Positions 9,402 through 59,378 of a stretch of DNA of 64,000 nucleotides are shown here, one piece after another. Position 1 is the first letter of the stretch. Each line of letters opens with the position of its first letter. Origin of the DNA: an uncultured Acidobacteriaceae bacterium (lineage in GTDB: Bacteria; Acidobacteriota; Terriglobia; Terriglobales; Acidobacteriaceae); contig CAVPDX010000001.1 of assembly GCA_963702775.1 (NCBI GenBank), forward strand, positions 115,688 through 179,687. Direction: 5' to 3'. The notes under the pieces were generated by a model. That model saw only the letters and a program-made list of their open reading frames with translations. It was not told the origin of the DNA and did not search any database. The position numbers and the translations under genes were made by a program.

Positions 9402-10217
9402 ATGAAAATGAAACGTTTTCCGGCGATGTTAAAGATGTCTCTGGCTCTCTTGATTGCCTGCTCGGGTTTCTCTGCAGAAGCTAAAGCGCAGAATACCGCC
9501 GCGGAATCTGGCCGCAAGCCCGTATTGGTCGAGCTATTCACCTCGGAGGGCTGCTCTTCTTGTCCCCCGGCGGATGCGTTGCTGCAGAAACTGGAAGCGC
9601 AACAACCGGTAGCTGGAGCCGAGATCATCGCGTTGGAAGAGCATGTGGATTATTGGAATCACGACGGCTGGGTCGATCCCTTCTCTTCGCCGGAGTGGAC
9701 GCACCGGCAGGAGGTTTATACCGCCCTCGTCAAGAAAGACGTATACACGCCGGAACTCGTGGTGGACGGCCAGAGCCAGTTCCTGGGCAGCGATGAACAA
9801 GCGGCTCAACTCGAAATCGAGAAGGCTTCGCGCGGCTTGAAAACTGACGTTGCAATCACGCCGGGTAAGCCGGAAGGCAAAGGCTCGCAGCGCTTCACCG
9901 TCTCGGTAGGGAAGCTTGCCGGAAACAAGCCCGGCGATGCGGCGGAAGTCTGGCTGGCGGTTACCGAGGATGGTCTGCATTCGTCGGTGGGCGCGGGAGA
10001 GAATGCGGGGCACGTCCTGACTCATGTTGCAACGCTGCGTTCGTTGCGCAAGATTGGCGTCGCCGATGCGAGCGGCGCGCCGGCATCCTTTGCTGGAGAT
10101 GCCGTGGTGAAGTTCAACTCCCACTGGGCTTCTGAAAATCTGCACGTGACGGTTTTCGTGCAGGAGAAGAAGAGCCGGGAAATTCTGGGAGCGGCCTCAA
10201 CCAAGGTAAAAGGCTAG
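9402..10217 (+). CDS. DUF1223-domain secreted protein
   Basis: Signal peptide, then ELFTSEGCSSCPPAD and EEHVDYWNHDGWVDPFSS, which are characteristic of DUF1223. Confidence 0.8.
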   Translation: MKMKRFPAMLKMSLALLIACSGFSAEAKAQNTAAESGRKPVLVELFTSEGCSSCPPADALLQKLEAQQPVAGAEIIALEEHVDYWNHDGWVDPFSSPEWTHRQEVYTALVKKDVYTPELVVDGQSQFLGSDEQAAQLEIEKASRGLKTDVAITPGKPEGKGSQRFTVSVGKLAGNKPGDAAEVWLAVTEDGLHSSVGAGENAGHVLTHVATLRSLRKIGVADASGAPASFAGDAVVKFNSHWASENLHVTVFVQEKKSREILGAASTKVKG

Positions 10218-10226
10218 TTCGTAAGG

Positions 10227-11291
10227 TTAGTGCCGGCGGCGATTCTTCGCCGGCCTTGGCGTTGACTTCTGCTCGCCCGGAGCCAGCACCCGCCGCACGA
10301 TCGGCGAGTTCATCTTGTATTTGCGCTCGCTGACGTTGCCGTTATCGTCTTTCACCCGCAGGACGAAGACGGGCAGCGTGCCTTCCTTGCCAAAGTTCTC
10401 ATTCGTAACAGTAATCGGAAGCACGCCATCCAATCCATGTTCGCGGTAGGCAGTCTCGTAGCGGTGCTTGCGGACATTCCAGGTGAAAACGCGAATCTGA
10501 TCGTAGTCGTACGGCAGCCCGTCGTGCGGTTCGGTGATAGCGCATAGATACTGCGATACCTTCTTGCCCGTACCCTCTTTACCCGAATCCTCGACCTGAT
10601 TCAACACAAAGAAAGCAACGAAGCGCTGGCCTTCGGCATACTGCGCGACTTCGAGCGGAATATCCAGATCCACCATGCGGGCCAGCACCCAGCCCACGCG
10701 GTTCTGCTCATCGCGCACCAGCCACCAGTCCTCGAGTACCGGGCCAGAGGAGGTTTTCGCGCCGTGCACCGGCTTGGCTGGAGCCGCGCTGGCCTGCTTC
10801 TCAGCCGTGGCGCGTTTCAGGATGGAAACCTTCGCTCCCGACGAAAGCTGGTACAGATGCTCGGTCTCGCGGCCGGGTGTGAGGTGCAGGTTGGTATCGT
10901 TGCGCAGCACGCCGGGCGCTTGCACCGGATCGTTTAAGTTCTCCCGCGTCAGCTTTTGCAGACCGTCATAGGTTTCCTGGTTCACCAGGTAACGTTGCTC
11001 GATCCAGCCCTCGATGCCGCTTGCCGTGCGCACGCGGGAGAAGCGCTTCTCGTGCTCCAGCACCTCGACCCGATCTCCATTCTTTACCGTGCCGACGCGG
11101 TTGTAGATGGTGGCCACCTGATCGCGCAGCGTGGCCTGTACCGCCGATACGTAATTTACTTCCAGTACCCGGTGACCTTTGCGATTGCAGGCGGAAAGCG
11201 TGAGCAGGAAGACAGCGGCCTGCACGCATACAACGGCGGATCGAAAAAGATGCGATGGTTGAAACGATTTCACGATATTAGCGTCGTGCAC
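10227..11291 (-). CDS. SH3-domain lipoprotein
   Basis: Lipobox-like LTLSACN. Two bacterial SH3-like segments are present (GDRVEVLEHEKRFSRVRTASGIEGWIEQRYL; GAKVSILKR...WWLVRDEQNRVGWV). Confidence 0.75.
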   Translation of the reverse strand: MHDANIVKSFQPSHLFRSAVVCVQAAVFLLTLSACNRKGHRVLEVNYVSAVQATLRDQVATIYNRVGTVKNGDRVEVLEHEKRFSRVRTASGIEGWIEQRYLVNQETYDGLQKLTRENLNDPVQAPGVLRNDTNLHLTPGRETEHLYQLSSGAKVSILKRATAEKQASAAPAKPVHGAKTSSGPVLEDWWLVRDEQNRVGWVLARMVDLDIPLEVAQYAEGQRFVAFFVLNQVEDSGKEGTGKKVSQYLCAITEPHDGLPYDYDQIRVFTWNVRKHRYETAYREHGLDGVLPITVTNENFGKEGTLPVFVLRVKDDNGNVSERKYKMNSPIVRRVLAPGEQKSTPRPAKNRRRH

Positions 11292-11443
11292 TTCGCGACA
11301 CTTGCCCGGCGAGGTTCAGTTCCCACTATAGCGCGTTGCAACCTGGTTTCCCGGCACGAAGGTTGACGGAGAATGCACTCCGAAACCTGAATCGTAGGAT
11401 GATCGGATTAACCCTTCAACGTTGTTCAGTCTATAGTCGGCGA

Positions 11444-11905
11444 ATGCAGGATCGTTCTCGCTCCGGTAGCGGCAGGGAGCCGCTCGTCAGACTGCCTTAC
11501 GGGTTCACAGCCTTCGGCGTCTTTCTCTTTTTCGGCGCGTTGATGGCCGCCCTTGCCGCAACGACCCTGTCACGGCCGGGCACGGCTCTCGACCGTGTGT
11601 GGGCGCTCAATCCCGCCGCCTACAGTCAACTTGCGCCTCTCGGCAGATCCATGGGCGTTGCCTTCCTGATTCTCTGCATGGTTTTGGCGCTCGCCGGAGT
11701 GGGGTGGTTCCGTCGGCGGCTCTGGGGGTGGAGATTGGGCACTGTGATCATCGTCACTCAAGCGCTGGGAGACTTGGTCAATTGCCTCCGAGGAGACTTC
11801 CTACGCGGCGGTGTGGGCCTGACGATCGCCGGAGGATTGCTCGTATATCTTTGGCGGCCATATGTGCGGGCCATTTTTGATGGAAGCACAAAGCGAGCGT
11901 CATGA
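11444..11905 (+). CDS. small membrane protein
   Basis: The internal ATG (MQDRSRSG...) is preferred over the track start at 11336. Four hydrophobic segments are present. Confidence 0.55.
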   Translation: MQDRSRSGSGREPLVRLPYGFTAFGVFLFFGALMAALAATTLSRPGTALDRVWALNPAAYSQLAPLGRSMGVAFLILCMVLALAGVGWFRRRLWGWRLGTVIIVTQALGDLVNCLRGDFLRGGVGLTIAGGLLVYLWRPYVRAIFDGSTKRAS

Positions 11906-11943
11906 CACGGCGACGCCCCTTCAGTTACCATTAAGAATACGCC

Positions 11944-12561
11944 ATGAAAAACATATCCATGAATCGGATCGCCGTTCTGTCGCTTCTGGCTTTGGTATTC
12001 GCTGCGGGTTGGTGTGCGGCCGCGGATCAGTCTGTGAATGACGTGTTGCGCCCGCCCAAGGGTGCGCAGGTCGCCATCGTAGTATTCGAGGATTTGCAGT
12101 GTCCGCAATGCCGCCGTGTGGCGCCTATTCTCGAGCGGGCGTCGAAGGACTACAAAATTCCGCTCGTACGCCACGACTTCCCCCTCCCCATGCACAACTG
12201 GTCTTATAACGCAGCTGTGATAGCGCGCTACTTCGACGAGCCTTCGAAAGAGTTGGGCAATGAATTTCGCGACTATATCTTCGCGAACCAGTTCGAGATC
12301 AATCCGCAGAACCTGCAGAGCTATGCCGAGAAATTCGCCGCCGCACACAAAGTCGGTCTCCCCTTCGTGGTCGATCCGCAAGGCAAGCTCGCCGCCGAGG
12401 TGAATGCCGACCGCGACCTGGGCAAGGCCATCAACCTCAATCACACGCCCACCGTCTACGTGGTCAGCAGCCGACATCCCGACAAGCCTTATGTAGAGAT
12501 AGACCCGACGCGTATTGACAGCCAGCTCTACTTGACGATCGATGCGATGGAGAAGGAGTAG
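11944..12561 (+). CDS. DsbA-family thiol:disulfide oxidoreductase
   Basis: Signal peptide, CPQC active site, and thioredoxin-fold length. Confidence 0.85.
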   Translation: MKNISMNRIAVLSLLALVFAAGWCAAADQSVNDVLRPPKGAQVAIVVFEDLQCPQCRRVAPILERASKDYKIPLVRHDFPLPMHNWSYNAAVIARYFDEPSKELGNEFRDYIFANQFEINPQNLQSYAEKFAAAHKVGLPFVVDPQGKLAAEVNADRDLGKAINLNHTPTVYVVSSRHPDKPYVEIDPTRIDSQLYLTIDAMEKE

Positions 12562-12589
12562 TTCTCAGTTTCTGGTTCTCAGTTCTAAC
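12561..12589. repeat. heptad-periodic simple repeat (GTTCTCA GTTTCTG GTTCTCA GTTCTAA)
   Basis: Read directly. It starts at the last base of the dsbA-like stop codon and belongs to the same family as 19145-19222. Confidence 0.85.
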
Positions 12590-12610
12590 CCCTGGCGTTC
12601 GTGGCACTCG

Positions 12611-12980
12611 TAAGTTGTTGGGTTTTGGTGGAAGTCGTTGATTCTTTTTACCGGCTCCTAACCGGGCACCTTCATGTTGCTTCGCTCCCGGCTAAGTTGT
12701 TGATTCTTCGTGGAACCAGTTTCCGTAGCGAAAATCGAGTTCAACCCGCGCGCAGAATGCCCTTGTTTTGCGTTTAGGAGGCACTGGGGCGCGTTTCGTG
12801 TTCCCGGACGAGGTCAAAGCCCATCCCAGAAATTTCCACAGGCTAGAATCACCTCCAGCGCGGTAATTATCTCAGAGCTAATATGGAAAATTCGGCGCTG
12901 ACGAAGAATCAACGACTTACGATCCCATCACGAAGAATCAATCACTTACAACGCTCGTGCAAAGAATCAACGACTTGAAA
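12611..12980. repeat. array of six ~20-nt repeats (3 forward, 3 inverted) around a ~190-bp core
   Basis: Forward copies are AAGTCGTTGATTCTT-type at 12611-12630 (degenerate), 12631-12650 and 12692-12713. Reverse complements are at 12901-12920, 12929-12950 and 12959-12980. Confidence 0.85.
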
Positions 12981-37396: not shown

Positions 37397-38842
37397 TCAC
37401 GGGCGCGCAGGAATGACGACTGGACGACGAGTATTCCGTGATCCGGGAGGGTCATTCAGAACCCAGGAGGCATGGCCGAACGCGTAGAGGTTTTCAGTTG
37501 ATGCGACATATAGGACTCCATCCGCCACGGCGGGCGAGGCATACACCCCAATGCCGGTGTTGAAGCTCCACAGTTTCGCACCCGTACTGGCATTAAGGGC
37601 ATACACGTTGAAGTCGGAGGAGCCAACGTACACCACCCCGTTCGCCACCGCGGGCGAGGACGAGGATTCCACACCGCCGCCGGTCGAGAAGCTCCAGAGT
37701 TTCGCACCCGTACTGGCGTTCAAGGCATACACGTTGTTATCGTAGGAGTTAACATACGCCACGCCATTCGCTACAGCGGGCGAGGCGGCCAAGGCCCCGC
37801 CGGTCGTGAAGCTCCAGAGTTTCGCACCCGTACTGGCGTTCAAGGCATACATGCTGCCGTTTATGGAGTTTACATACACCGCGCCATTCGCCACGGCGGG
37901 CGCGGAGATAAAGTAGCCGTTGTAGCTGCCGGGTGTGAAGCTCCAGAGTTTCGCGCCCGTACTGGCGTTCAAGGCATACACGTTGTTATCGGTGGAGTTA
38001 ACATACACCACGCCATTTGCCACGGCGGGCGCGGACCAGATGTACGAGCCGGTTGTAAAACTCCACAGCTTGGCGCCCGTACTGGCGTTCAGGGCATACA
38101 TGCTGTAGTCGTCGGAGCCAATATATACAACGCCATTCACCACGACGGGCGAGGCGTACACTACGTCGCCGGTCGTGAAGCTCCACAGTTCCGCACCCGT
38201 ACTGGCGTTCAAGGCATACACGTTGTGGTCATCGCAGCCAAAATATACAGCGCCGTTCGCCACAGCGGGCGAGGAGGACACTCCGTTGCTGTTGCCAGTC
38301 GTGAAGCTCCACAGTTCCGCGCCCGTGCTGGCATTCAGGGCATACACCCCGTTGAAGTAGTAAATCGAGCCAACATATACGACTCCATTCACTATTGCGG
38401 GCGAGGAGCTCCCGGTGTCAAGCCTGGCGTTCCAACGAGGAAGGAGGGAGGCGACCCTCGAAGGATTCAGCATATTCTCGTAGGGATTATTCCGGGTGTT
38501 GTCGGGCGTGAAGCCGAATTCCACCCAGTTGGTTTGCACCAAGAAAACGGCCTTCGCGTCGCCGCTGTCGGTCGCGAGCTGCACCACGCTCACCCAATGA
38601 TCTCCCGGCACAGCTGAGGAGGGAACCTGAATGGCAACATTAGAAAACGAACCTGAGCCGTCGGCAAGGGCCGAGGCTTCAAAGGTGGTATCGAAGTAGA
38701 TGTCAATCGAGGCGTAAGTGGAAAAGCCGCTGCCCGAGACGAGGACGTTGGTGGTGGGTGGGCCCACCGCAGGCCCCAGTTGGACCGCGGGCTGGCCAAA
38801 GCAGAAGCTCGCAAGCATCAATACCGCGATTATGGATTTCAC
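37397..38842 (-). CDS. PQQ-like beta-propeller repeat protein with N-terminal Ig/IPT-like domain
   Basis: At least 8 repeats of ...VYALNASTGA[KE]LWSFTTG... plus a signal peptide. Confidence 0.85.
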   Translation of the reverse strand: MKSIIAVLMLASFCFGQPAVQLGPAVGPPTTNVLVSGSGFSTYASIDIYFDTTFEASALADGSGSFSNVAIQVPSSAVPGDHWVSVVQLATDSGDAKAVFLVQTNWVEFGFTPDNTRNNPYENMLNPSRVASLLPRWNARLDTGSSSPAIVNGVVYVGSIYYFNGVYALNASTGAELWSFTTGNSNGVSSSPAVANGAVYFGCDDHNVYALNASTGAELWSFTTGDVVYASPVVVNGVVYIGSDDYSMYALNASTGAKLWSFTTGSYIWSAPAVANGVVYVNSTDNNVYALNASTGAKLWSFTPGSYNGYFISAPAVANGAVYVNSINGSMYALNASTGAKLWSFTTGGALAASPAVANGVAYVNSYDNNVYALNASTGAKLWSFSTGGGVESSSSPAVANGVVYVGSSDFNVYALNASTGAKLWSFNTGIGVYASPAVADGVLYVASTENLYAFGHASWVLNDPPGSRNTRRPVVIPARP

Positions 38843-39151
38843 GATGGTGCCTCCCGCATTCGACGAATTAGTGAATCAAAGAAAAAAGCCGACTTACCAG
38901 CGGCGGCTTTACGCAGCCACCTGCGGTAACTCGGCTGTCTTTAAGTCCACTCAGGGGGCCCGTCGAACTTCTTAAAGACCCGTGGCTTTCCGTCGCTCGC
39001 TACACGCGAGGTTTGGTCTTGAAAAGTCCTTGCCCCGTCAGGCTACGGTGACAATCACTCATTGTCAGTGACTCATATCACGGTTCAGGGTGATCGCAAC
39101 GAAATCGTAAAGCCCCGTGGGAGATATCTAAGTGTCGAGAACAGGCCTCTC

Positions 39152-40522
39152 TGACAATGTGGATCCCTGTCAAACACTTTTTGAGCGTACTGCTCCGTGC
39201 ACTCCGAAGAGCGCGCCATTTCGCTCTAGTTGAAGGTTTCTGCCATACCAACCAAAAGCTCGCTCGTAATCGTTTCAGGTCAGAAGCTCAGTTCGACCCA
39301 TGCATCTCTTCGGTCACAACTTCGATCATGATTACTACTTCGAACTCCTCCGTGAAGGAGGAGCGGGCTGCCCAATCAATAGCTCGATGTTCTACTGCAC
39401 ACCACGGCCTGTTCCGAGCGTGGCCGCGTGCGAATCGAACTTTTTCACTCGCTCGTAATCCCATCCCTTGTGCCACATCCAGTGCAAACGAATCGCGAGT
39501 CTCCGCGCCATCGCCACCTTGGCGATCTTCCGCCCCCGGCGCATCACCAAGTGGAAATACTTGCTGCGCCATTCCGGAAGCCTGCGAACTGTGACCTGGG
39601 CCGCTTCCACCAGCAAGAAGCGCAATATCGAACTCCCCGGTTTGGTGATATGCCCCAGTCGCCGCCGATTTCCGCTGGAATCTTCCAGCGGCACCAGTCC
39701 GAGATAGCTCGCCACCTGCTTCCCACACTGAAAGCGCTTCGCATCTCCGATGATCAACACGAAAGCCAGTGCGGTCAGCGGACCCACTCCAGGATGGGTC
39801 ATCAACCATCGTGCCTCGGGAAGCTTCTCGGCCTCTTGCTCAATCGCCTGACTCAGTTCCGCAATCGTCGGATTCAGCCGATCCAGCAACTCCAGCAGAT
39901 CGCGCCGGCGTCGGCTCGCCCAGGGAGCTAACCGGATCGACTCCAGTTGTTCCCGTCCGTGCTCCCGCCATAACCTCTTTTTGCAACGTAGCCCTTCGTT
40001 CAGGGCTACGGCTTGCAACTGATTCAGAATGCGGGTGCGCGCCTGCACCATGCGGTGGCGGTGCCACAGCAGTTGCCGCAGATCGCGATTCTCCCAGCTC
40101 GCTACCCAGATCCGCGGAAAATCATCCTTCAGCAGCAAGCGCAGAATGTGCTGTGCATCCTGGCGATCCGTCTTCTGCTTGCGTTCGCGCTTCCTGGCGA
40201 TTTCGGTGGCGTCCCCGATCCACACCTCGAAGTTCAGTTCGCCCAGGAGTCGCTCGAACCAGCGCGCATGCTCACTGGCTTCCATCCCCACACGCACTTT
40301 CATTCCCTGTACCCCAAGACCACGGTAGAACTTCTCTGCTTCCTCGCGGTGCTCAAGGCGCCGTTCCTGTAATTCCCCTGTGTCCGTATCGACAAACGCA
40401 ATTTGCTGAAAGCTCGGGTGGTAATCGCATCCTATAATCAACATATCGGCTCCTTTTCTCCCGAGCCTTTTGGTTGGTTAGCACCACCAAGTTTACTCGG
40501 GGCGTGGGAGCCAACATTGTCA
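39152..40522 (-). mobile_element. IS110/IS1111-family insertion sequence (boundaries approximate)
   Basis: TGACAATGTGGATCCC (39152-39167) matches the reverse complement of GGGAGCCAACATTGTCA (40506-40522) at 15/16 positions with 1 gap. The repeats enclose the transposase gene. Confidence 0.6.
39392..40444 (-). CDS. IS110-family transposase
   Basis: MLIIGCDYHPS... (DEDD N-terminal domain) and ...THPGVGPLTALAFVLIIGDAKRF..GKQVASYLGLVP (Transposase_20-like). Confidence 0.92.
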   Translation of the reverse strand: MLIIGCDYHPSFQQIAFVDTDTGELQERRLEHREEAEKFYRGLGVQGMKVRVGMEASEHARWFERLLGELNFEVWIGDATEIARKRERKQKTDRQDAQHILRLLLKDDFPRIWVASWENRDLRQLLWHRHRMVQARTRILNQLQAVALNEGLRCKKRLWREHGREQLESIRLAPWASRRRRDLLELLDRLNPTIAELSQAIEQEAEKLPEARWLMTHPGVGPLTALAFVLIIGDAKRFQCGKQVASYLGLVPLEDSSGNRRRLGHITKPGSSILRFLLVEAAQVTVRRLPEWRSKYFHLVMRRGRKIAKVAMARRLAIRLHWMWHKGWDYERVKKFDSHAATLGTGRGVQ

Positions 40523-40640
40523 TGGAATCAATAGCGCTCGCAACCAGAGCTTGGATTCCTGGGAGTTGACGAGCAAAAGTCGGAGCCCCTACCCGCCGAG
40601 GAACGTACCAACTTTGGCCGTGCGCGAACTCAGCCGTCGC

Positions 40641-41825
40641 TCACAGGGACAGCGCGACTTCTCTCGCGGCCTCTGTGCCCCTAACTGCACTAGCCGAGGC
40701 TCCCAGGCTGGATAATCTGCTCCCGGTGATCGCCGGCACAAGCTGAATCTGCACCAACCGCGCAGGCGCAGCATTCGACTTCTTCGCCAGCAAATTAGCC
40801 GAAGGAATGCCGGTGCGGGCAAACGATTTCTCGCAGTCCGCGGTGGAAGGACCGCGCATATTCCCCTCCATGAACGCCAGCCCGGGACAGCGAGTGCAAG
40901 TCGAGCCATGAGCGCACTGCGAGCAACTGGATAAATCGCGCAACCGAATTGAACGAACTTCTTTCAGTTGTTCGGAGTTGCGCCAGATGTCAATGAAGCG
41001 CTGCTGCCGCACGTTCCCGCAGGACAAGGGAAACTGCACGCAAGGGTAAAACTCTCCGTAGGGAGAAACGTAGCAGGCGGTATGGCCTGCGCTGCAAGGC
41101 AGGGACTGCATGCTGCTCTCATCGGGCGCGGGCGGCAGCGCACAGAACTCTTCGGCGCTGCCAACAAAAGACTCGTCCCGGAACAAGGTGTGCAGCGCGG
41201 ACTCACCCGCGTTCAAGTCGAGGATGGAGCGGTCGCCATCCATCTTCGGCGTGATCGTCGGATCCAGCGTGTAACGGGCATCGACTTCTTCCGCCAACGC
41301 GCGAACGCCGTGATAATCCTGCATATTCTGGGTCATCATCACATTGCCGACGACTACCTTGAGGCCCTGCGCCCGGAGAAAGCGGATGGCGTTGATCGAC
41401 CGGCGCAGCGAGCCGGGAAGCTTGGTGATGGCATCATGAACTTCCGGCCGGTGGGAATAAATGCTGACCTGAACCGACTCCACGCCGAGATCGCGCAGGC
41501 GCGCCGCCTGGGCTTCGCGAATGAGCACGGCATTGGTCTTGAGCTTGATGCAGAAGGTGAGATCGCGCGCGTATTCCAGAATCTCGAAAAAATCCTTGCG
41601 CAAGAAGATCTCGCCGCCGCTGAGCGTAAGAATAAAGACCCCGGCTTCAGCCATCTCCTTGAGCAAGTGCTTGATCTCAACCGTGGTCATCTCGCCGTGA
41701 TCGTCGTGATCGAGGTAGCAGTGAATGCACTTTTCGTTGCAGCGGTAGGTGAGATCAAGCTGCACGCTGAAGGGAACGCCCAAGCGCAGAGCCCGTTCAC
41801 TCATTTCCTGCATCAAGGCGCTCAT
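40641..41825 (-). CDS. radical SAM/SPASM-domain peptide-maturase-like protein
   Basis: LDLTYRCNEKCIHCYL (CX3CX2C) and a C-terminal Cys cluster CSAGHTACYVSPYGEFYPC...CSQCAHGSTCTRCPG. The ATG overlaps the PqqD stop (ATGA). Confidence 0.88.
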   Translation of the reverse strand: MSALMQEMSERALRLGVPFSVQLDLTYRCNEKCIHCYLDHDDHGEMTTVEIKHLLKEMAEAGVFILTLSGGEIFLRKDFFEILEYARDLTFCIKLKTNAVLIREAQAARLRDLGVESVQVSIYSHRPEVHDAITKLPGSLRRSINAIRFLRAQGLKVVVGNVMMTQNMQDYHGVRALAEEVDARYTLDPTITPKMDGDRSILDLNAGESALHTLFRDESFVGSAEEFCALPPAPDESSMQSLPCSAGHTACYVSPYGEFYPCVQFPLSCGNVRQQRFIDIWRNSEQLKEVRSIRLRDLSSCSQCAHGSTCTRCPGLAFMEGNMRGPSTADCEKSFARTGIPSANLLAKKSNAAPARLVQIQLVPAITGSRLSSLGASASAVRGTEAAREVALSL

Positions 41826-42163
41826 CTTTTTTGTTCTAACCCCTGTTCTAATTTCTGCACAGACGTAACCGGCTTCGGAATCGGTTGCTCGGAAATCAGC
41901 AGAATGCCATGCCTGGCCAAATCTTCGGCCAGCGCCTCGGCATCGCGCATCGCTTCCTCGGGCTTCACGTCGAACTCGGAGCAGATGCGGCGCTCCACGA
42001 TCTCATCCAACGGAGTAGCCCCGTCGGCGGCCTGCCAGAGAATGGTTGCGGTGGGGTTCAGCGTAAACAGCGTCGAACCCTGACCCGACATGACCAGCAT
42101 TTCTTCACCCAGCATGCGGGCTGCGATCCGCGGACTGCGCGCCACGTAGAGTGTCTTAGTCAT
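41822..42163 (-). CDS. PqqD-family peptide chaperone (RRE)
   Basis: MTKTLYVARSPRIAARMLGEEMLVMS...LFTLNPTATILWQAADGATPLDEIVERRICSEFDV.PEEAMRDAEALAEDLARHGIL. The ATG at 42163 overlaps the upstream stop (TAATG). Confidence 0.85.
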   Translation of the reverse strand: MTKTLYVARSPRIAARMLGEEMLVMSGQGSTLFTLNPTATILWQAADGATPLDEIVERRICSEFDVKPEEAMRDAEALAEDLARHGILLISEQPIPKPVTSVQKLEQGLEQKR

Positions 42164-43080
42164 TATCCAATCATCTCCCAGACGCGCGCATCCGGCACAA
42201 AAGTCAGCCGGTACACGGGCACGCAATCGACGAAGTCGCACGCCGCCTGAAACGCCGAGCACACCAACTCCTCGTCCTCGGCAAAGAAAAGCATATTGGC
42301 CAGCAGTTCGCGCCCGGCATCGGCTGTGGTCACGGGGTCGATGCGATTCTCCAAGCCTTTCGCCAGCAGGTAAAGCGCGGCCACCGGCGCAGACGTGTTC
42401 TCGCCCAGTTTGGCCAGTTCCCCGGTGAAGGGAGTGCCAAACGCAACATAACCCTCGCTGTGCTGAGGCACGTTCTCCTGAGAGACGTGCTTCTGAGAAA
42501 CGCTGGTGGAACCGTTGCGCTTGCGGACGTAGGAAATCTCATCCGTCAGAAGCGTAGCGTCGGCGGGTGCAAACCGCGAAATCGTAGTCTTCCCCGCTCC
42601 TGAAACTCCGGCAAACAAAAAGGCCTTGCCATTGCGTATGGCGCTGGCGGAGTGCAATAGAAATCCACCCTGCCGGGCTAGGAGCAGCGTATGCGTAATG
42701 CGCAGAACGGCGTCGATCGAATAGGGATTCAGCGACTGCTGAATCCACCCGCGGCGCGCCGCGGGATCCCATTCGGCGCGGAAATCTCCCCGTTCCATCC
42801 GCCAGCGGCCAGAGCGGTGGGTCACGCGCACATCCGCATCCGGATCGGCCAATGCAGGCCGTCTCAACTCCACGTCGAACTCGAACTCCGCATCGGCCAC
42901 GGCGCTTACAAATCCGGCGTAGCGTTCTTCCAGCAGCGCGAGAAAACCCGCATCGTCCGTGTTTACGCGGACGGCCACGCCGCCAATCGCAATCACAACG
43001 CTGCAGCGGTCGACTTGTGCGGCTAGCCCTGGCACGGATGAATCGATTCCCTTGGACCCCATACCCCACGAACCAGACAA
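42163..43080 (-). CDS. HPr-kinase-like P-loop protein
   Basis: GFLLHSASAIRNGKAFLFAGVSGAGKTTISR...LLTDEISYV. The true start is probably nearer 43035 (GTG), overlapping the end of the peptidase frame. Confidence 0.8.
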   Translation of the reverse strand: MSGSWGMGSKGIDSSVPGLAAQVDRCSVVIAIGGVAVRVNTDDAGFLALLEERYAGFVSAVADAEFEFDVELRRPALADPDADVRVTHRSGRWRMERGDFRAEWDPAARRGWIQQSLNPYSIDAVLRITHTLLLARQGGFLLHSASAIRNGKAFLFAGVSGAGKTTISRFAPADATLLTDEISYVRKRNGSTSVSQKHVSQENVPQHSEGYVAFGTPFTGELAKLGENTSAPVAALYLLAKGLENRIDPVTTADAGRELLANMLFFAEDEELVCSAFQAACDFVDCVPVYRLTFVPDARVWEMIG

Positions 43081-43531
43081 TGAAAGTAAACGAGGGCGCG
43101 TGCCGCAAGAAACGAGCGCCGAACAATCTTTGCTATCATTTTCGCGAGCACAGTCAACTCCGCGGGCACTGCGACGCGCTCACCCGCCAGGATGAAGTAC
43201 GCGATGCGGCCAAGCAACTCATTCGCGGCCACCGGAGGATCTGGAACGGGCAGCGCATCGCCTTGCGTAATCCAGCGTGGATTCTGAGAATCACCCGCAG
43301 TACCCACGACGCGATGAGCACAGGCCCGCCTTCGCGCCCTACCAGCACTAAGTCGCCGATGCGGACTTGATCGGGCGCGACTCGCTCAACCAGCAGCGTT
43401 TCGCCGGGCCAAACAGAAGGCAGCATGCTCCAGCCCGTCGCGGCGAAACGAAGCTTGCCGAATGAGCACAGAACGTCCGCCGCCAGTTCGCATTTCAGAG
43501 CGTGGGCGTCGGCAGGCGCCGGCGAACTCAT
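43023..43531 (-). pseudogene. S24/S26-family serine peptidase, interrupted by one frame change near 43310-43335
   Basis: The N-terminal part runs from ATG 43531 (GWSMLPSVWPGETLLVERV...GDLVLVGREGG). The C-terminal part, in the neighbouring frame, reads AHRVVGTAGDSQNPRWITQGDALPVPDPPV..ELLGRI. Confidence 0.7.
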
Positions 43532-43644
43532 GACACCTTCGTATTCAGTGCGCAGCCGCTTTGACTGGGGCTGATCTTGCCGCAAGTAAGCGCCGTGGTC
43601 ACGAAGACCTCTTCGCAGCGAAAGGACGGCTTCTCGTAACGCAT
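43528..43644 (-). CDS. candidate RiPP precursor peptide, 38 aa (alternative start 43698 gives 56 aa)
   Basis: Hand translation gives MRYEKPSFRCEEVFVTTALTCGKISPSQSGCALNTKVS. GC3 is 28/38 here versus 20/38 in the overlapping long frame. The TGA overlaps the peptidase ATG. The leader motif is YxxPx[LF]. Confidence 0.55.
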   Translation of the reverse strand: MRYEKPSFRCEEVFVTTALTCGKISPSQSGCALNTKVS

Positions 43645-43977
43645 TTTCTCGGTTGCCGCAGGACGCGGTTCTTGGTTCGATGAGTGATTCAATCCCATAA
43701 TGATCGTTCCCCACTATCGTAAGGCCGATTGCAGCGCCGCATCGCGCACCCGGACTCTGGTCTGTTGTTGGAAACCCATCATACACCCCTGAGTTTTGAG
43801 GAAACCCGCAAAATTTAGATGCGCAAGAAAGATTTCCACAGACATTTCCACTCCCCTTGCAACCAATAAAAGCCCGTCATGGGTTTCGTCCGCGTATTAG
43901 TATAGGAGGACGTTTGTTCCGAGCCTCCGCACAGTATCAGGCAAACAAGTGTCGGGCAAAGAAGCGAGAGGAGAGAA

Positions 43978-44340
43978 GTGCTATCAGAGCCGCTGACCAT
44001 CGAACGATTTGAAGGCGCGAATTATCAGCAGCGCGTCCTGCGCTTGACCGGGCCGTTGACGGCAGCGACGACAGAACCTTTCCAAAATGCCCTGCGGTCG
44101 GAAAATGCTGGAACCATTATTCTCGATCTAAGCCAAGTTCCTTACATCGATTCCTGCGGACTGGGATCTCTGGTTGGAACTTATGTGAGTTGCCAGAAAT
44201 CCGGCAGGCGAATGGCCTTGAGCGGCATCACCCCGCGGGTGTGGCAATTGTTTCAGATTACAAAGCTGGAGCCATTCTTCCTGGTCTTCCCCACTCTCGC
44301 GGCCGCGGTCGACGGATTGACCAACGCCGGCAGCGCATGA
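43978..44340 (+). CDS. STAS-domain anti-sigma-factor antagonist
   Basis: ILDLSQVPYIDSCGLGSLVG...(SpoIIAA-like). GTG start after GAGAGGAGAG. Confidence 0.8.
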   Translation: MLSEPLTIERFEGANYQQRVLRLTGPLTAATTEPFQNALRSENAGTIILDLSQVPYIDSCGLGSLVGTYVSCQKSGRRMALSGITPRVWQLFQITKLEPFFLVFPTLAAAVDGLTNAGSA

Positions 44341-44792
44341 TCCAGCGCTGAGAATTGGCGGAAGCGAGTGGGGGTCGAACGGGCAAAGACATTGATAACA
44401 AAGGAAATCCTCTGGAATCAATCCGGCTTCCCGATCAAAACCTTAACATCCGCCGGGGGCTAGCACAGTTTTCGTACAGCTTTGGTCTTGCATTCGCCAA
44501 AGAACCCGCACCGAACTCACCGTCTGTGCTAGCGGTTTGCTAATCGGCTTTCCCGGAGTGGTCCTCTTCGTTTTCAATAACTTATACCCGCCCTGAGGTT
44601 GCATTTTCGGGTCTATTCGGGCTTAGTCGGGTTCTTCAATGCAACGAAAATGCAACGGAGACTGACCGTGCAAACAGGCCGAAATCCGGAGGAGAAGGGA
44701 GCCTCAGCGCGGGCGCTTGCAGGCTTGCCCCAATTGTCTGTTCCTTCGGCTGCTAAAACACGGCACGACCGCTCTGTCTTGAATAGTAATCG

Positions 44793-46396: not shown

Positions 46397-47096
46397 CTCC
46401 AAGAAACCTAGGGCCAGTCGCATCCCGGCGCTGGAAGTCGAACTTACGAAGAGCCCAGACGGCAAGCTGCGTTCGTTCCGCGTCTCCATCGGCACAGCGG
46501 CCGTCATGGTGCTTTTGATGTGTCTTAGAGGGGGAGCTAGCGACAGCTGGCTCCCTGCGTTGAAATGGATCGTCGCAATAGTGCGCTGAATTGGCTGGAC
46601 CGAGCGCAGCAGTTGCCGACAGGCACGCTCCGACGCGCAGCTGCGCTTTAAAGCCATCCAGAATTCAAGCCCTGCATCTCACGAAGGACCCGTGGCACTA
46701 ACGACGAGAGTTTCTTGGCAGTGAAACGCATTTCATGCCGGAAGATCATCAAATCCAGGAACACCAGGACAACATCAGGAACATCATCGACAGCAACAGT
46801 ATCGGCGGTGGGGCAGAGTTAATTCGTGCAAGAAGAGGAACGACGAGCAGCAGTGAGGAGAAGGATGAGCAGCAGGAGGATGATGAAGAGGAGAATGAGC
46901 AGGATGATGATGGTGACGATGATGAGGAGCAGGAGGAGAATGAGCCACCGATGAGCGGCAGCTATCTAGGAAGAATGCGGACAATCCGCCTCCGCCGGCA
47001 CCACCGCCGGCGCCGCCACCGCCACCACCACCGCCACCACCACCGCCAACTGGCCGCCGCCCGGTCGCCGGCCCCAAAGCCCAGGATGCAGACTTA

Positions 47097-48428
47097 TCAG
47101 TGCTGTGTTAGTCCCTCCGATTCCGGTTCGTTGAGCAACTTGAGTCGTCGCTTGATGCCTTGCTGGATCGAAGTTGCCACTGATTCAGGAAATCCCGTTG
47201 GTAGGTCGGACACGACTGAGTCAACTACCGCCGATGCAGAGTCCCGCAGTTCTTCGAAGATGCCTCTAACCACGCTTCCCCCAACACCCGCTTTCTCGGC
47301 CGTTTGGAAAAAATGGCGCGGAGCAATATTCATGATTTTGTAATGGCGCTTGGAACCGACTGCCATAGCTAAGCGGAACTGTTTCCAGAGTATCTGTTTT
47401 ACATCAACGCTTGGTTGAGCTGAGATTACGTCATAGAACGGAGTCAGGCGGAATCGCCCACCGGATGACAGAAAGACGCTGAAATTCTTCGCATGTCCGT
47501 CCGTGGCTCCGAGCAACCAATAGATGATATTAGCTTTCAAGAACGATCGCTGATCCGCAATAGGTTCGTCGCTTCCTCGTAGTAGTTGAAGTATTTTCTC
47601 AATGCCTGGTCCACCATCGCTCTCGTACTTAAGATTCGGAGAAACGGAGAGTGCTTGGCAGCAGTCCTCTTGGGGAAGGCGCAGCAGCCTCTTGTCAGCG
47701 GTCCATAGCCTGTCGAATCGTTCGACAACGAGGACTCGTTTGTCTCCGAAGGATGACATTTCGGCGTTTGCCGCGGCAAGGTCCAATCCTTTTACAATCT
47801 TCAGACAGAGATATTCGTTTTCTACGCTATAAGTTAGATCTATTCCGTTTGGAAGGCGACCGACCGAAGGTTTTAAGATATGGGTTGTAGCTGTAGTACC
47901 GCGGGGCTTGTACCATTCTCCGTTCAAGAGGAGGAGTGCCGTTTTCTCCTGTGCACCGGCAATGGAGATGCGGAAGCTTTCGTCCTCTGTAATCCCGAGT
48001 GGAGCGGTCGCTAAATTGTCTAGTATTTCTGTAATTTCGCGCTCGTTAACCGGAACACCGTCCACAGCTCCAGGTGGGCCTGGCTGCGAGTCCCGCGGTA
48101 GGAACTGAAGGGCGCCGACACAATCGTGACCAATCGCTCCGAGAAGGCTGTATGCATCCGTTCCTTCAGCGCGCGCGCGCGCAGCGATTCGTCGCCGAAG
48201 GGATTCGTTGTCGGGCAAGAGGTTCTCAAAGACCGCAATTACGGGCGCGCCGGTGTACTCTTGCTCACGTATCGGGAGAGAGAGCGAAACGGGGATGGCT
48301 GGCGGCCATGCGATCCAAGAATGATCGTATTGGAAAGAGATTGCCCCTGAGATTTCACGACGCAGTTCGCCGACGAGGCGGCTGTTTAGAAATGTGCTCA
48401 CCGGTTCATAGCGCGCGCGTCGAGGCAT
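47097..48428 (-). CDS. hipA: type II toxin HipA-family kinase
   Basis: N-terminal coupling domain, ISIAGAQEKTALLL and GATDGHAKNFSVFL. The start overlaps the hipB stop (TAATG). Confidence 0.9.
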   Translation of the reverse strand: MPRRARYEPVSTFLNSRLVGELRREISGAISFQYDHSWIAWPPAIPVSLSLPIREQEYTGAPVIAVFENLLPDNESLRRRIAARARAEGTDAYSLLGAIGHDCVGALQFLPRDSQPGPPGAVDGVPVNEREITEILDNLATAPLGITEDESFRISIAGAQEKTALLLLNGEWYKPRGTTATTHILKPSVGRLPNGIDLTYSVENEYLCLKIVKGLDLAAANAEMSSFGDKRVLVVERFDRLWTADKRLLRLPQEDCCQALSVSPNLKYESDGGPGIEKILQLLRGSDEPIADQRSFLKANIIYWLLGATDGHAKNFSVFLSSGGRFRLTPFYDVISAQPSVDVKQILWKQFRLAMAVGSKRHYKIMNIAPRHFFQTAEKAGVGGSVVRGIFEELRDSASAVVDSVVSDLPTGFPESVATSIQQGIKRRLKLLNEPESEGLTQH

Positions 48429-54838: not shown

Positions 54839-54936
54839 TGGCGGAAGCGAGTGGGGGTCGAACCCACCGGTGACAGGAAGACCTGCCGCCCGCCGGTTTT
54901 GAAGACCGGGACGATCACCGGACCGCATGCGCTTCC
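54839..54936 (-). tRNA. selC: tRNA-Sec (anticodon UCA), CCA encoded
   Basis: GGAAGCGCAUGCGGUCCGGUGAUCGUCCCGGUCUUCAAAACCGG...GUGGGUUCGACCCCCACUCGCUUCCGCCA. It has a 6-bp D-stem with a 4-nt loop and a long variable arm, and its overall layout parallels E. coli selC. Confidence 0.85.
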
Positions 54937-58702: not shown

Positions 58703-58777
<75 letters not shown>

Positions 58778-59303: not shown

Positions 59304-59378
59304 GGCGCGGTACCCAAGTGGTAAGGGAGAGGTCTGCAAAACCTTTATGCGTCGGTTCGATTCCGACCCGCGCCTCCA
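59304..59378 (+). tRNA. tRNA-Cys (GCA), CCA encoded
   Basis: GGCGCGG...AGGTCTGCAAAACCT...GGTTCGATTCC...CCGCGCCTCCA. Confidence 0.88.

Follow-up and report, generated by a model that had tools for sequence, protein, structure and literature searches.

In a stretch of 64,000 nucleotides from an uncultured Acidobacteriaceae bacterium (GenBank assembly GCA_963702775.1, contig CAVPDX010000001.1, positions 115,688 to 179,687; hereafter the window), a small minus-strand open reading frame (ORF) had been predicted to encode the unannotated precursor of a ribosomally made and post-translationally modified peptide (RiPP) that serves adjoining PqqD, radical S-adenosylmethionine (SAM) and HprK-like genes. 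We found that this ORF is a conserved, translated-looking small gene that is coupled to, and co-inherited with, four enzyme genes. Three of the four are those named in the original prediction; the fourth, which it missed, encodes a putative leader peptidase. Co-occurrence in dozens of loci supports the predicted role, and we consider it likely, with good confidence, that the ORF encodes a true RiPP precursor on which its neighbors act. Taken jointly with the explanation that we favor below, the system is probably an acidobacterial, radical-SAM-containing relative of the linear polyphosphorylated peptide (LPP) system of Bacillota. The peptide family is unannotated. It occupies 216 places in species-representative genomes (a scan of one genome per GTDB species) and more than 580 in metagenome contigs, nearly all from uncultured Terriglobia, a group whose natural products are almost unknown.

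Direct translation bore out the ORF itself. The minus strand from 43698 to 43528, ATG to TGA, reads MGLNHSSNQEPRPAATEKMRYEKPSFRCEEVFVTTALTCGKISPSQSGCALNTKVS, with an internal ATG at 43644, and as predicted it is enclosed and masked by a mechanically called ORF of 210 aa at 43154..43786 (the long ORF). Both ATG codons had been offered as starts. Residue 19, encoded by the internal ATG, is Met in the window, Lys in contigs of the same species and Lys in at least 90% of the family; ATG 43644 is therefore a strain-specific substitution and ATG 43698 is the conserved start, so that the 56-aa form stood and the 38-aa form did not. It is the 56-aa form that is kept in about 300 distinct homologs. Among 5.8 billion proteins searched by word index, 49 homologs were found, mostly of 53-61 aa (one called at 74 aa), the majority of which align across all 56 residues. 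In an exhaustive HMMER search with the 38-mer, 99 cluster representatives reached E ≤ 1e-3, and nearly all of these aligned as far as their own C-terminal end. The 80 loci listed among the 216 encoding stretches all come from metagenome-assembled genomes (MAGs) of Acidobacteriota, including Acidobacteriaceae, Ca. Sulfotelmatobacter, Acidoferrum, Solibacter and other Terriglobia. No model or name for the peptide was found in Pfam, NCBIfam or any other source, a comparison of its profile with PDB gave chance matches only, and a literature search found no description of this gene cluster; the same search turned up the LPP paper discussed below.

To establish which frame is under selection, as the original prediction had proposed, we compared 86 loci (85 fetched and the window), 82 of them distinct in sequence. 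The peptide frame is open in all 86 loci and has no internal stop in 82/82 distinct genes, while the other two sense frames are interrupted in 80/82 and 65/82 and the three antisense frames in 70-78/82. The frame interrupted in 65/82 is that of the long ORF and of the peptidase gene, the stops lying upstream of the peptidase ATG. The pooled Nei-Gojobori ratio of nonsynonymous to synonymous differences (pN/pS) was 0.39 in the peptide frame, compared with 1.31 and 1.52 in the shifted sense frames, and variability was highest at the third codon position (0.39 vs 0.21 and 0.17), at which the G+C content is 0.67 over the 82 genes. By this pattern of substitution, the small ORF is a real gene under purifying selection. 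Evidence against it had been specified in advance as orthologs that keep the 210-aa frame and break the 38-aa frame, or as the lack of related peptides near homologous enzymes; the reverse was seen on the first count, and related peptides were found on the second. Since the loci of the frame test were retrieved through the peptide, the presence of its motifs in them is partly by construction, and a peptide-independent check was added: in three look-ups anchored on homologs of the neighboring ScmC/HprK-like protein, the peptide ORF lay directly 5′ of the peptidase gene, overlapping its start, in 7/7 places. Within the window, earlier hand counts of third-position G+C were reproduced for the peptide frame (28/38) and came to 21/38 rather than 20/38 for the long frame, which, as had been noted, uses the codons TTA, CGA (twice) and AGA over the peptide stretch.

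A Shine-Dalgarno-like tetramer (GAGG or GGGG) precedes the start by 6-18 nt in 63 of the 82 distinct orthologous genes. A scan of 40400-44100 found no sigma-70-like promoter and a single terminator-like match, below the shuffle expectation.

The claim that the peptide gene is hidden in the alternate frame of a true gene did not hold. From the ATG at 43531, which overlaps the peptide stop codon, the sequence reads MSSPAPADAHALKCELAADVLCSFGKLRFAATGWSMLPSVWPGETLLVERV..., which is signal-peptidase-like. Compared with three contigs of the same species (L086, L087 and L088; 98.5-99.1% identical), the window is without one T near 43324; tblastn places the peptidase in two frames, 43531-43331 and 43271-43074, and an intact ortholog (P0269) has 169 aa. 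The long ORF is thus made up of three parts, an open frame added on the 5′ side, the real N-terminal half of the peptidase, and a tail that is out of frame past about 43324, and by this comparison its 5′ third is a spurious, chance extension of the peptidase gene. The frameshift, which does not lie in a long homopolymer, may be real (a pseudogene) or an assembly error. For annotation, the lesson is that a long ORF masking a small gene can be an artifact of an upstream open frame and a frameshift.

Peptide family, operon and enzymes

Per-position frequencies were taken from 224 distinct tails of standard length, and C-terminal and spacing counts from 286 distinct tails. Conservation is strongest in residues 18-41, while the N-terminal 17 or so residues and residues 42-55 vary. 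In the leader, Y21 (100%), K23 (97%), P24 (100%), F26 (92%), R27 (87%), E29 (99%) and V31 (93%) stand out, in agreement with the YxxPxL-type motif that had been recognized in YEKPSF. They are followed by F32 (100%), position 33 (E in 57%, V in 42%), T34 (97%) and an invariant A36, L37, C39, G40 and K41 (all 100%); the window peptide has FVT where 57% of the family has FET. Farther downstream come T45 (75%), Q46 (72%), C49 (99%), N52 (83%), K54 (80%) and S56 (100%). The C-terminus lies 35-37 residues from Y21 in 280/286 tails, and the predicted C-terminal Ser is kept in 284/286, within a strongly conserved K-x-S tail. Of the three Cys residues to which attention had been drawn, Cys39 and Cys49 are essentially invariant, and Cys28 is found in only 8% of the family. 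By analogy with LppA of the LPP cluster, which is cut after the T of FET, the leader would be removed after Thr34. The core so delimited has no Tyr and, in the window peptide, no acidic residue, and 88/124 family members have none after CGK; its position 3 is an invariant Leu and its position 4 is S, A or T, the positions being those compared with the LPP phosphosite. A sister subgroup with the leader block ...VFET.AL.CGK accounts for at least 584 matches in soil and peat metagenome contigs. The features of the locus are collected in Table 1.

Table 1. Features assigned in the precursor locus, numbered from the first nucleotide of the window
Feature	Position	Strand	Remarks
Shine-Dalgarno-like GGGG (in GTGGGGAA)	43709..43712	minus	10 nt 5′ of ATG 43698; consensus match only
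Precursor peptide gene	43528..43698	minus	56 codons + TGA; start ATG 43698, stop TGA 43530..43528
Predicted leader, residues 1-34	43597..43698	minus	Variable N-terminus, then conserved KKPYEKPSFRxEQVF(V/E)T block
Y21-E-K-P24-S-F26, YxxPx(F/L/V)-type motif predicted to bind a RiPP recognition element (RRE)	43621..43638	minus	Conservation; PqqD neighbor like lasso B1 RREs
Predicted core, residues 35-56 (TALTCGKISPSQSGCALNTKVS)	43531..43596	minus	Invariant A36, L37, C39, G40, K41, C49, S56
SpI-like (SipW/Sec11-type, Ser-His-Asp) leader peptidase gene	43023..43531	minus	ATG overlaps precursor stop; frameshifted near 43324 in the window
ScmC-family HprK-like P-loop protein, predicted peptide kinase	42163..43062	minus	Walker A GVSGAGKTT; start placed as in 99%-identical P0149
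Discrete PqqD-type RRE, 113 aa	41822..42163	minus	Pfam PqqD, 2e-13
Radical SAM/SPASM enzyme	40641..41825	minus	CNEKCIHC motif, Cys-rich SPASM domain; no fused N-terminal RRE

The peptide gene, single-copy in the window, is the first of a minus-strand operon in the order peptide, peptidase, ScmC/HprK-like protein, PqqD protein and radical SAM/SPASM enzyme. Its TGA overlaps the peptidase ATG (gtgtcATGAgt), and an ATGA or GTGA overlap is present in 80/82 orthologs; we propose that the peptide gene is translationally coupled to the next gene. The five-gene set recurs in nearly every related locus with enough flank, with one radical SAM gene per annotated locus. In L086, an intact cluster with a gene for a 169-aa peptidase spans 9834-12892. 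The sister subgroup shares the set, though not always in the same order: in two of its metagenome contigs (L120 and L166) the genes run ScmC, PqqD, radical SAM, peptide and peptidase. Linkage that outlasts such rearrangement speaks for a functional unit. A gene for an NTP_transf_5 protein (PF14907) is also present in about 40 of 85 related loci. Neither this gene nor an MsbA-like exporter is present in the window or in the intact loci of the same species, and among the genes of the annotated loci no ABC exporter is listed and no conserved genes for cofactor-dependent enzymes were seen adjoining the clusters.

Several additions to the operon were observed in related loci. Most of these loci encode, at varying positions, a protein of about 700 aa with a signal-peptide-like N-terminus (L001 5864-7972 and equivalents), which is rich in Gly, Ser and Thr, belongs to no Pfam or NCBIfam family, gives a weak beta-propeller match only, and has no counterpart in the window. 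It could act with the system as a partner, be acted on as a target, or have a part in export. In some clusters (L171 1-2025 and 5373-6419; L175-L177 5397-6440), genes for YcaO and TfuA, the machinery of thioamidation, lie directly 5′ of the precursor, and a gene for a GT-B glycosyltransferase stands 3′ of the radical SAM gene in place of NTP_transf_5, which suggests further tailoring variants of the family. One MAG (MFD10071.bin.3.36) holds two separate precursor loci (L033 and L043), and some genomes thus carry two copies of the system.

Among NCBIfam models, TIGR02228, which describes archaeal-type signal peptidase I, fits the peptidase best, although the match (E 1e-10) stays under the curated cut-off. 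Among peptidases of the S26 family, a Ser-His(-Asp) catalytic site distinguishes the Sec11/SipW type from the Ser-Lys type. The residues invariant among the orthologs are G-W-S35-M-L-P, H73-R, G-D92 and P-D98, with no invariant Lys, which points to the Sec11/SipW type, with its Ser-His(-Asp) site, and away from the Ser-Lys type. An AlphaFold2 model (predicted local distance difference test score, pLDDT, 83) has a signal-peptidase/LexA fold, matching Streptococcus pyogenes SipA, human SEC11A/C, LexA and UmuD′, with an N-terminal helix at residues 6-24 ahead of the catalytic Ser. The enzyme is 25% identical to a signal peptidase I-like (SpI) protein from an LPP cluster (E 1e-7), and the Ser, His and Asp motifs of the two line up. 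UmuD cleaves at Cys-Gly, and a LexA/UmuD-type cut at Cys39-Gly40 was considered as well; it was set aside because the present peptidase is of the Ser-His-Asp and not the Ser-Lys kind, and because LppS of the LPP cluster cuts after the T of FET.

The assignment of the ScmC-like protein as a peptide kinase is a prediction from its P-loop and its family matches. Its homologs carry a precomputed PF27840 (ScmC) domain, and its own NCBIfam matches, all below cut-off, are to ScmC (9.6e-9), HprK_rel_A (3.4e-7) and HprK_rel_B (4.9e-4); a sequence and profile search of PDB gave no match to an HprK structure. The closest solved relatives of the PqqD protein by sequence are the lasso B1 RREs TfuB1 (1e-4) and TbiB1 (0.04), and it is 22% identical to an RRE from an LPP cluster (pairwise E 1e-5). 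The radical SAM enzyme matches Pfam Radical_SAM (1.6e-22) and SPASM (1.3e-10) and carries the motifs CNEKCIHC and CSQCAHGSTCTRC. Its matches to AhbD, NirJ2, MftC, WgkB, GeoRSP, ScmE, PqqE, StsB and AlbA are all below cut-offs, the AlbA profile aligning only from position 110 onward, and judged by these matches it is a generic SPASM maturase.

Proposed pathway and competing explanations

In the pathway that we propose and favor as an explanation, the discrete PqqD protein would bind Y21-x-x-P24-x-F26 and present the peptide to the enzymes. The radical SAM/SPASM enzyme, having no RRE of its own, would modify the short core, most likely by forming thioether cross-links from Cys39 and Cys49, and the ScmC/HprK-like protein would phosphorylate a Ser, most likely Ser56, as in paeninodin and pseudomycoidin. 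The phosphate may be decorated further in loci with NTP_transf_5 or a glycosyltransferase. The Ser-His-Asp signal-peptidase-like enzyme would finally cut the leader after Thr34 of F-(V/E)-T and free a modified peptide of about 22 residues. RRE binding and leader removal are proposed by homology to the LPP and lasso systems, and the radical SAM and kinase steps from conservation only; each specific chemical step is tentative, near an even chance but not above it. A bolder reading is that of an undescribed RiPP class, widespread in uncultured soil and peat Acidobacteriota, in which radical SAM cross-linking of two invariant Cys would be combined with (poly)phosphorylation, and in some loci glycosylation, of an invariant C-terminal Ser, and in which one discrete RRE would serve three unrelated enzymes, the radical SAM enzyme, the kinase and the peptidase. 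We give this new class somewhat less than an even chance.

Several points weigh against the favored pathway. Every modification in it is inferred. All scores of the kinase candidate against HprK and ScmC models are far under the curated cut-offs, which makes the kinase assignment weak; its sole PDB match, by sequence or profile, is to the P-loop of phosphoenolpyruvate carboxykinase (E 0.1-0.6), and its AlphaFold2 model, built from a 44-sequence alignment, is unusable (pLDDT 55, with the kinase half below 50). The radical SAM enzyme fits many SPASM families about equally, AhbD, NirJ and MftC included. Statistically, the likeness of the leader to that of LPP is weak (probability 17%, hhalign E 0.0015), and the alignment requires a gap of 2 residues; the LPP phosphosite, Ser3 of the core, is without an invariant counterpart in the acidobacterial family. 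No exporter is conserved in the acidobacterial cluster, and in the window the peptidase gene is frameshifted and the genes for NTP_transf_5 and the 700-aa protein are absent.

The product could instead be a linear phosphorylated peptide of the LPP type and nothing further, the radical SAM enzyme acting on another substrate, a cofactor or the leader, so that the Cys residues are not cross-linked. The LPP system works without a radical SAM enzyme, and the best model matches of the present enzyme are the tetrapyrrole enzymes AhbD and NirJ2. We nevertheless regard this as unlikely, since the radical SAM gene accompanies the peptide in nearly all loci that have enough flank, rearranged loci included, stands directly after the PqqD gene and encodes a full SPASM domain, and since the two Cys are 99-100% invariant within an otherwise variable core.

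Slightly less likely still is a peptide that gives rise to a small redox cofactor, or to a metabolite of that kind, in the manner of pyrroloquinoline quinone (PQQ) or mycofactocin, in which the radical SAM enzyme and PqqD modify C-terminal residues and the peptidase frees a small molecule. A radical SAM/SPASM enzyme without an RRE, a discrete PqqD, a small peptide and a peptidase do follow the logic of PqqE/PqqD and MftC/MftB, MftC (1.4e-39) and PqqE (2.7e-28) are among the better NCBIfam matches, and a strongly conserved K-x-S terminus in a peptide encoded once in the window would suit such a role. The MftC and PqqE scores, however, are far under their cut-offs (136 vs 265 and 99 vs 381), and AhbD and NirJ2 score higher. 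The wide variation of residues 42-55 between species is unusual for a cofactor precursor, the set of kinase, NTP transferase and SpI-type peptidase is that of phosphorylated peptides, and the annotated loci showed no conserved cofactor-dependent enzymes beside the clusters.

We consider it improbable that the peptide is a conserved small protein that is not a substrate at all, with a role in regulation, in immunity or in the assembly of the adjoining enzymes. Conservation and synteny would by themselves fit such a role; the peptide, however, carries exactly the type of motif bound by PqqD/B1 RREs and is encoded beside such an RRE, its F-(V/E)-T block looks like the leader that is cleaved in LPP, and a conserved block (18-41) followed by a variable one (42-55) is the layout typical of precursors. 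We give almost no weight to the remaining readings, a chance small frame within a real 210-aa gene, for which the long frame is at least open in the window, or a lasso precursor, which shares a YxxP leader and an HprK-like neighbor with paeninodin-type lasso clusters: stops interrupt the peptidase frame ahead of its ATG in 65/82 orthologs and never interrupt the peptide frame, the 3′ part of the long frame is the out-of-frame product of a 1-nt deletion, no gene for a lasso cyclase or B2 peptidase is listed in the annotated loci, and the window core is free of acidic residues.

State of the locus and other window features

Of about 113 differences from the 99.1%-identical contig of the same species (L087), 80 are concentrated in 43000-44499, a stretch that takes in the leader peptidase and precursor genes, the intergenic region upstream of them and a STAS gene (43978..44340); the genes for the ScmC-like protein, PqqD and the radical SAM enzyme are nearly identical. 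This distribution suggests allelic replacement by recombination, or else a diversification hot spot around the precursor. Directly 3′ of the radical SAM gene, an IS110-family transposase gene (NF033542, 2e-63) lies at 39392-40444 on the minus strand and is absent from that place in the contigs of the same species, and a stretch of 3.3 kb (40531-37210) does not align with the 1.9 kb at the same place in L086 and L087. The idea that the IS110 insertion had removed the genes for NTP_transf_5 and the 700-aa protein was rejected, since intact loci of the same species without the insertion lack both.

Farther 3′, a c-di-GMP-I riboswitch (Rfam RF01051, 46 bits vs a gathering threshold of 35) at 38922-39027 on the minus strand stands just 5′ of an ORF of 481 aa (38842..37397), whose product has a signal-peptide-like N-terminus and repeated 'VYALNASTGAKLWSF' units of the beta-propeller type. 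Elsewhere in the window are a selenocysteine tRNA (RF01852, 64 bits; 54843-54936, minus strand) and two ordinary tRNAs (58703-58774 and 59304-59375, plus strand). Compared with L087, the window has 12 extra nt (GGTGGTGGCGGT-like) at 47037-47048, in the region of an ORF rich in His/Arg and in acidic residues (46735..47343) that overlaps the end of a HipA-like gene (47097..48428).

Comparison with known systems

As for the cofactor systems, besides the low MftC and PqqE scores, the peptide has neither the Val-Tyr nor the Glu...Tyr C-terminal motif of mycofactocin and PQQ precursors. With the sactipeptides and ranthipeptides (AlbA, SkfB and CteB/PapB-type enzymes), the system shares a radical SAM/SPASM enzyme with CxxxCxxC and a Cys-rich auxiliary-cluster domain, and a short Cys-containing core downstream of a leader bound, or here predicted to be bound, by an RRE. 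It differs in having the RRE as a protein of its own and not as an N-terminal domain, in an enzyme that scores below every such model cut-off, in a core with only two Cys, and in the accompanying predicted kinase and signal-peptidase-like peptidase.

In the SynChlorMet cassette (NCBIfam TIGR04248-04251: ScmC, ScmD, ScmE and ScmF), a ScmC-type P-loop protein, a PqqD homolog and radical SAM/SPASM enzymes occur together, as they do here. PF27840 covers the acidobacterial ScmC-like protein, and ScmC and ScmD are the top-scoring NCBIfam models for the second and third enzymes of the operon. The scores, however, are far below the equivalog cut-offs (ScmC 35 vs 125, ScmD 25 vs 100, ScmE 105 vs 400, ScmF 61 vs 400), and the acidobacterial loci have one radical SAM enzyme instead of two, a signal-peptidase-like gene and an identifiable precursor. 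To our knowledge, and according to its TIGRFAM description, no precursor is known for the SynChlorMet cassette. If the new class is real, the present peptide would be the first candidate precursor type for ScmC-family (PF27840) systems, and the secreted protein of about 700 aa could be its partner or target.

Among lasso peptides, the pseudomycoidin kinase PsmK phosphorylates the C-terminal Ser and the NTP transferase PsmN adds a hexose to the phosphate (PMC6993621), which provides a precedent for the assignment of Ser56. Paeninodin and pseudomycoidin (PMC6993621) resemble the present system in a [Y/W]xxP leader motif and a discrete B1/PqqD RRE, here predicted to read it, in an HprK-like protein, here a predicted kinase, for the C-terminal Ser on which the peptide ends, and, for many related loci, in an NTP transferase, which in pseudomycoidin (PsmN) decorates the phosphate. 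Unlike them, the window lacks a macrolactam synthetase and a B2 cysteine peptidase, its core is without an acidic residue (Asp or Glu at core position 7-9 in lasso peptides) to close a ring, its leader peptidase is of another class, and a radical SAM enzyme is present. Neither an Asn-synthetase-like cyclase nor a transglutaminase-like B2 peptidase is among the genes of the annotated loci, and because of this and the acid-free core in the window the system is not a lasso system, as had been predicted.

The closest relative is the LPP system, described for the lppA/K/B/S/D/N cluster of Paenibacillus alginolyticus (Popov et al., Nat Commun 2026; PMC13381572). Its core genes encode LppS (Ser29/His68/Asp93), which is an SpI-like peptidase of the archaeal type, together with LppB (a discrete RRE), LppK (an HprK-like kinase), LppN (an NTP transferase) and LppD (an exporter). 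The leader carries the motif YxxPxVLxHQxIxFETxxS, and LppS cleaves after T-1 of FET only when the leader is presented by LppB. LppK polyphosphorylates Ser3 of the core, and the authors state that LPP are restricted to Bacillota (PMC13381572). The acidobacterial system has in common with it a Ser-His-Asp homolog of archaeal/SipW-type signal peptidases as putative leader peptidase, adjoining the precursor, a discrete PqqD-type RRE, a putatively HprK-like P-loop protein, in many homologous loci an NTP_transf_5-type transferase, and no lasso cyclase. Both leaders have YxxP followed by F-E-T (here F-(E/V)-T) about 10 residues on, and the leader profiles align, weakly, over 20 columns (kkpYxKPxFRxE--rVFET vs kxYxRPxVLxHQxIxFET, hhalign), the spacing from Y to T being 2 residues shorter here. 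New compared with LPP are a radical SAM enzyme, a pair of invariant Cys, an invariant Ser at the C-terminus and the phylum. The radical SAM/SPASM enzyme is constant here and absent from LPP; the predicted core has about 22 aa, as opposed to an LPP core of 45 aa, rich in Gly, Pro and Asn, with its phosphosite at Ser3; and in place of an MsbA-like exporter, the secreted protein of about 700 aa is often linked. In the supplementary tables of the LPP study (PMC13381572) there is no GWSMLP-type peptidase, Sulfotelmatobacter or SPASM entry, and none of the present proteins is listed. Its supplementary file 2 does list, in cluster 3 of the sequence similarity network, SpI-like peptidases encoded next to RREs in Acidobacteriota (Blastocatellia and others), Ca. 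Schekmanbacteria and Ca. Desantisbacteria, and SpI-only entries from Myxococcota and Chloroflexota, with all precursors of cluster 3 marked 'ND' (PMC13381572). SpI and RRE systems outside Bacillota thus exist beyond the present family. The scheme of SpI peptidase, RRE and HprK-type kinase, published in 2026 as confined to Bacillota, is extended here to Acidobacteriota, with a predicted kinase and a radical SAM enzyme added to it, and with a concrete precursor for which a cleavage site (after Thr34) and modification sites (Cys39, Cys49 and Ser56) are predicted.

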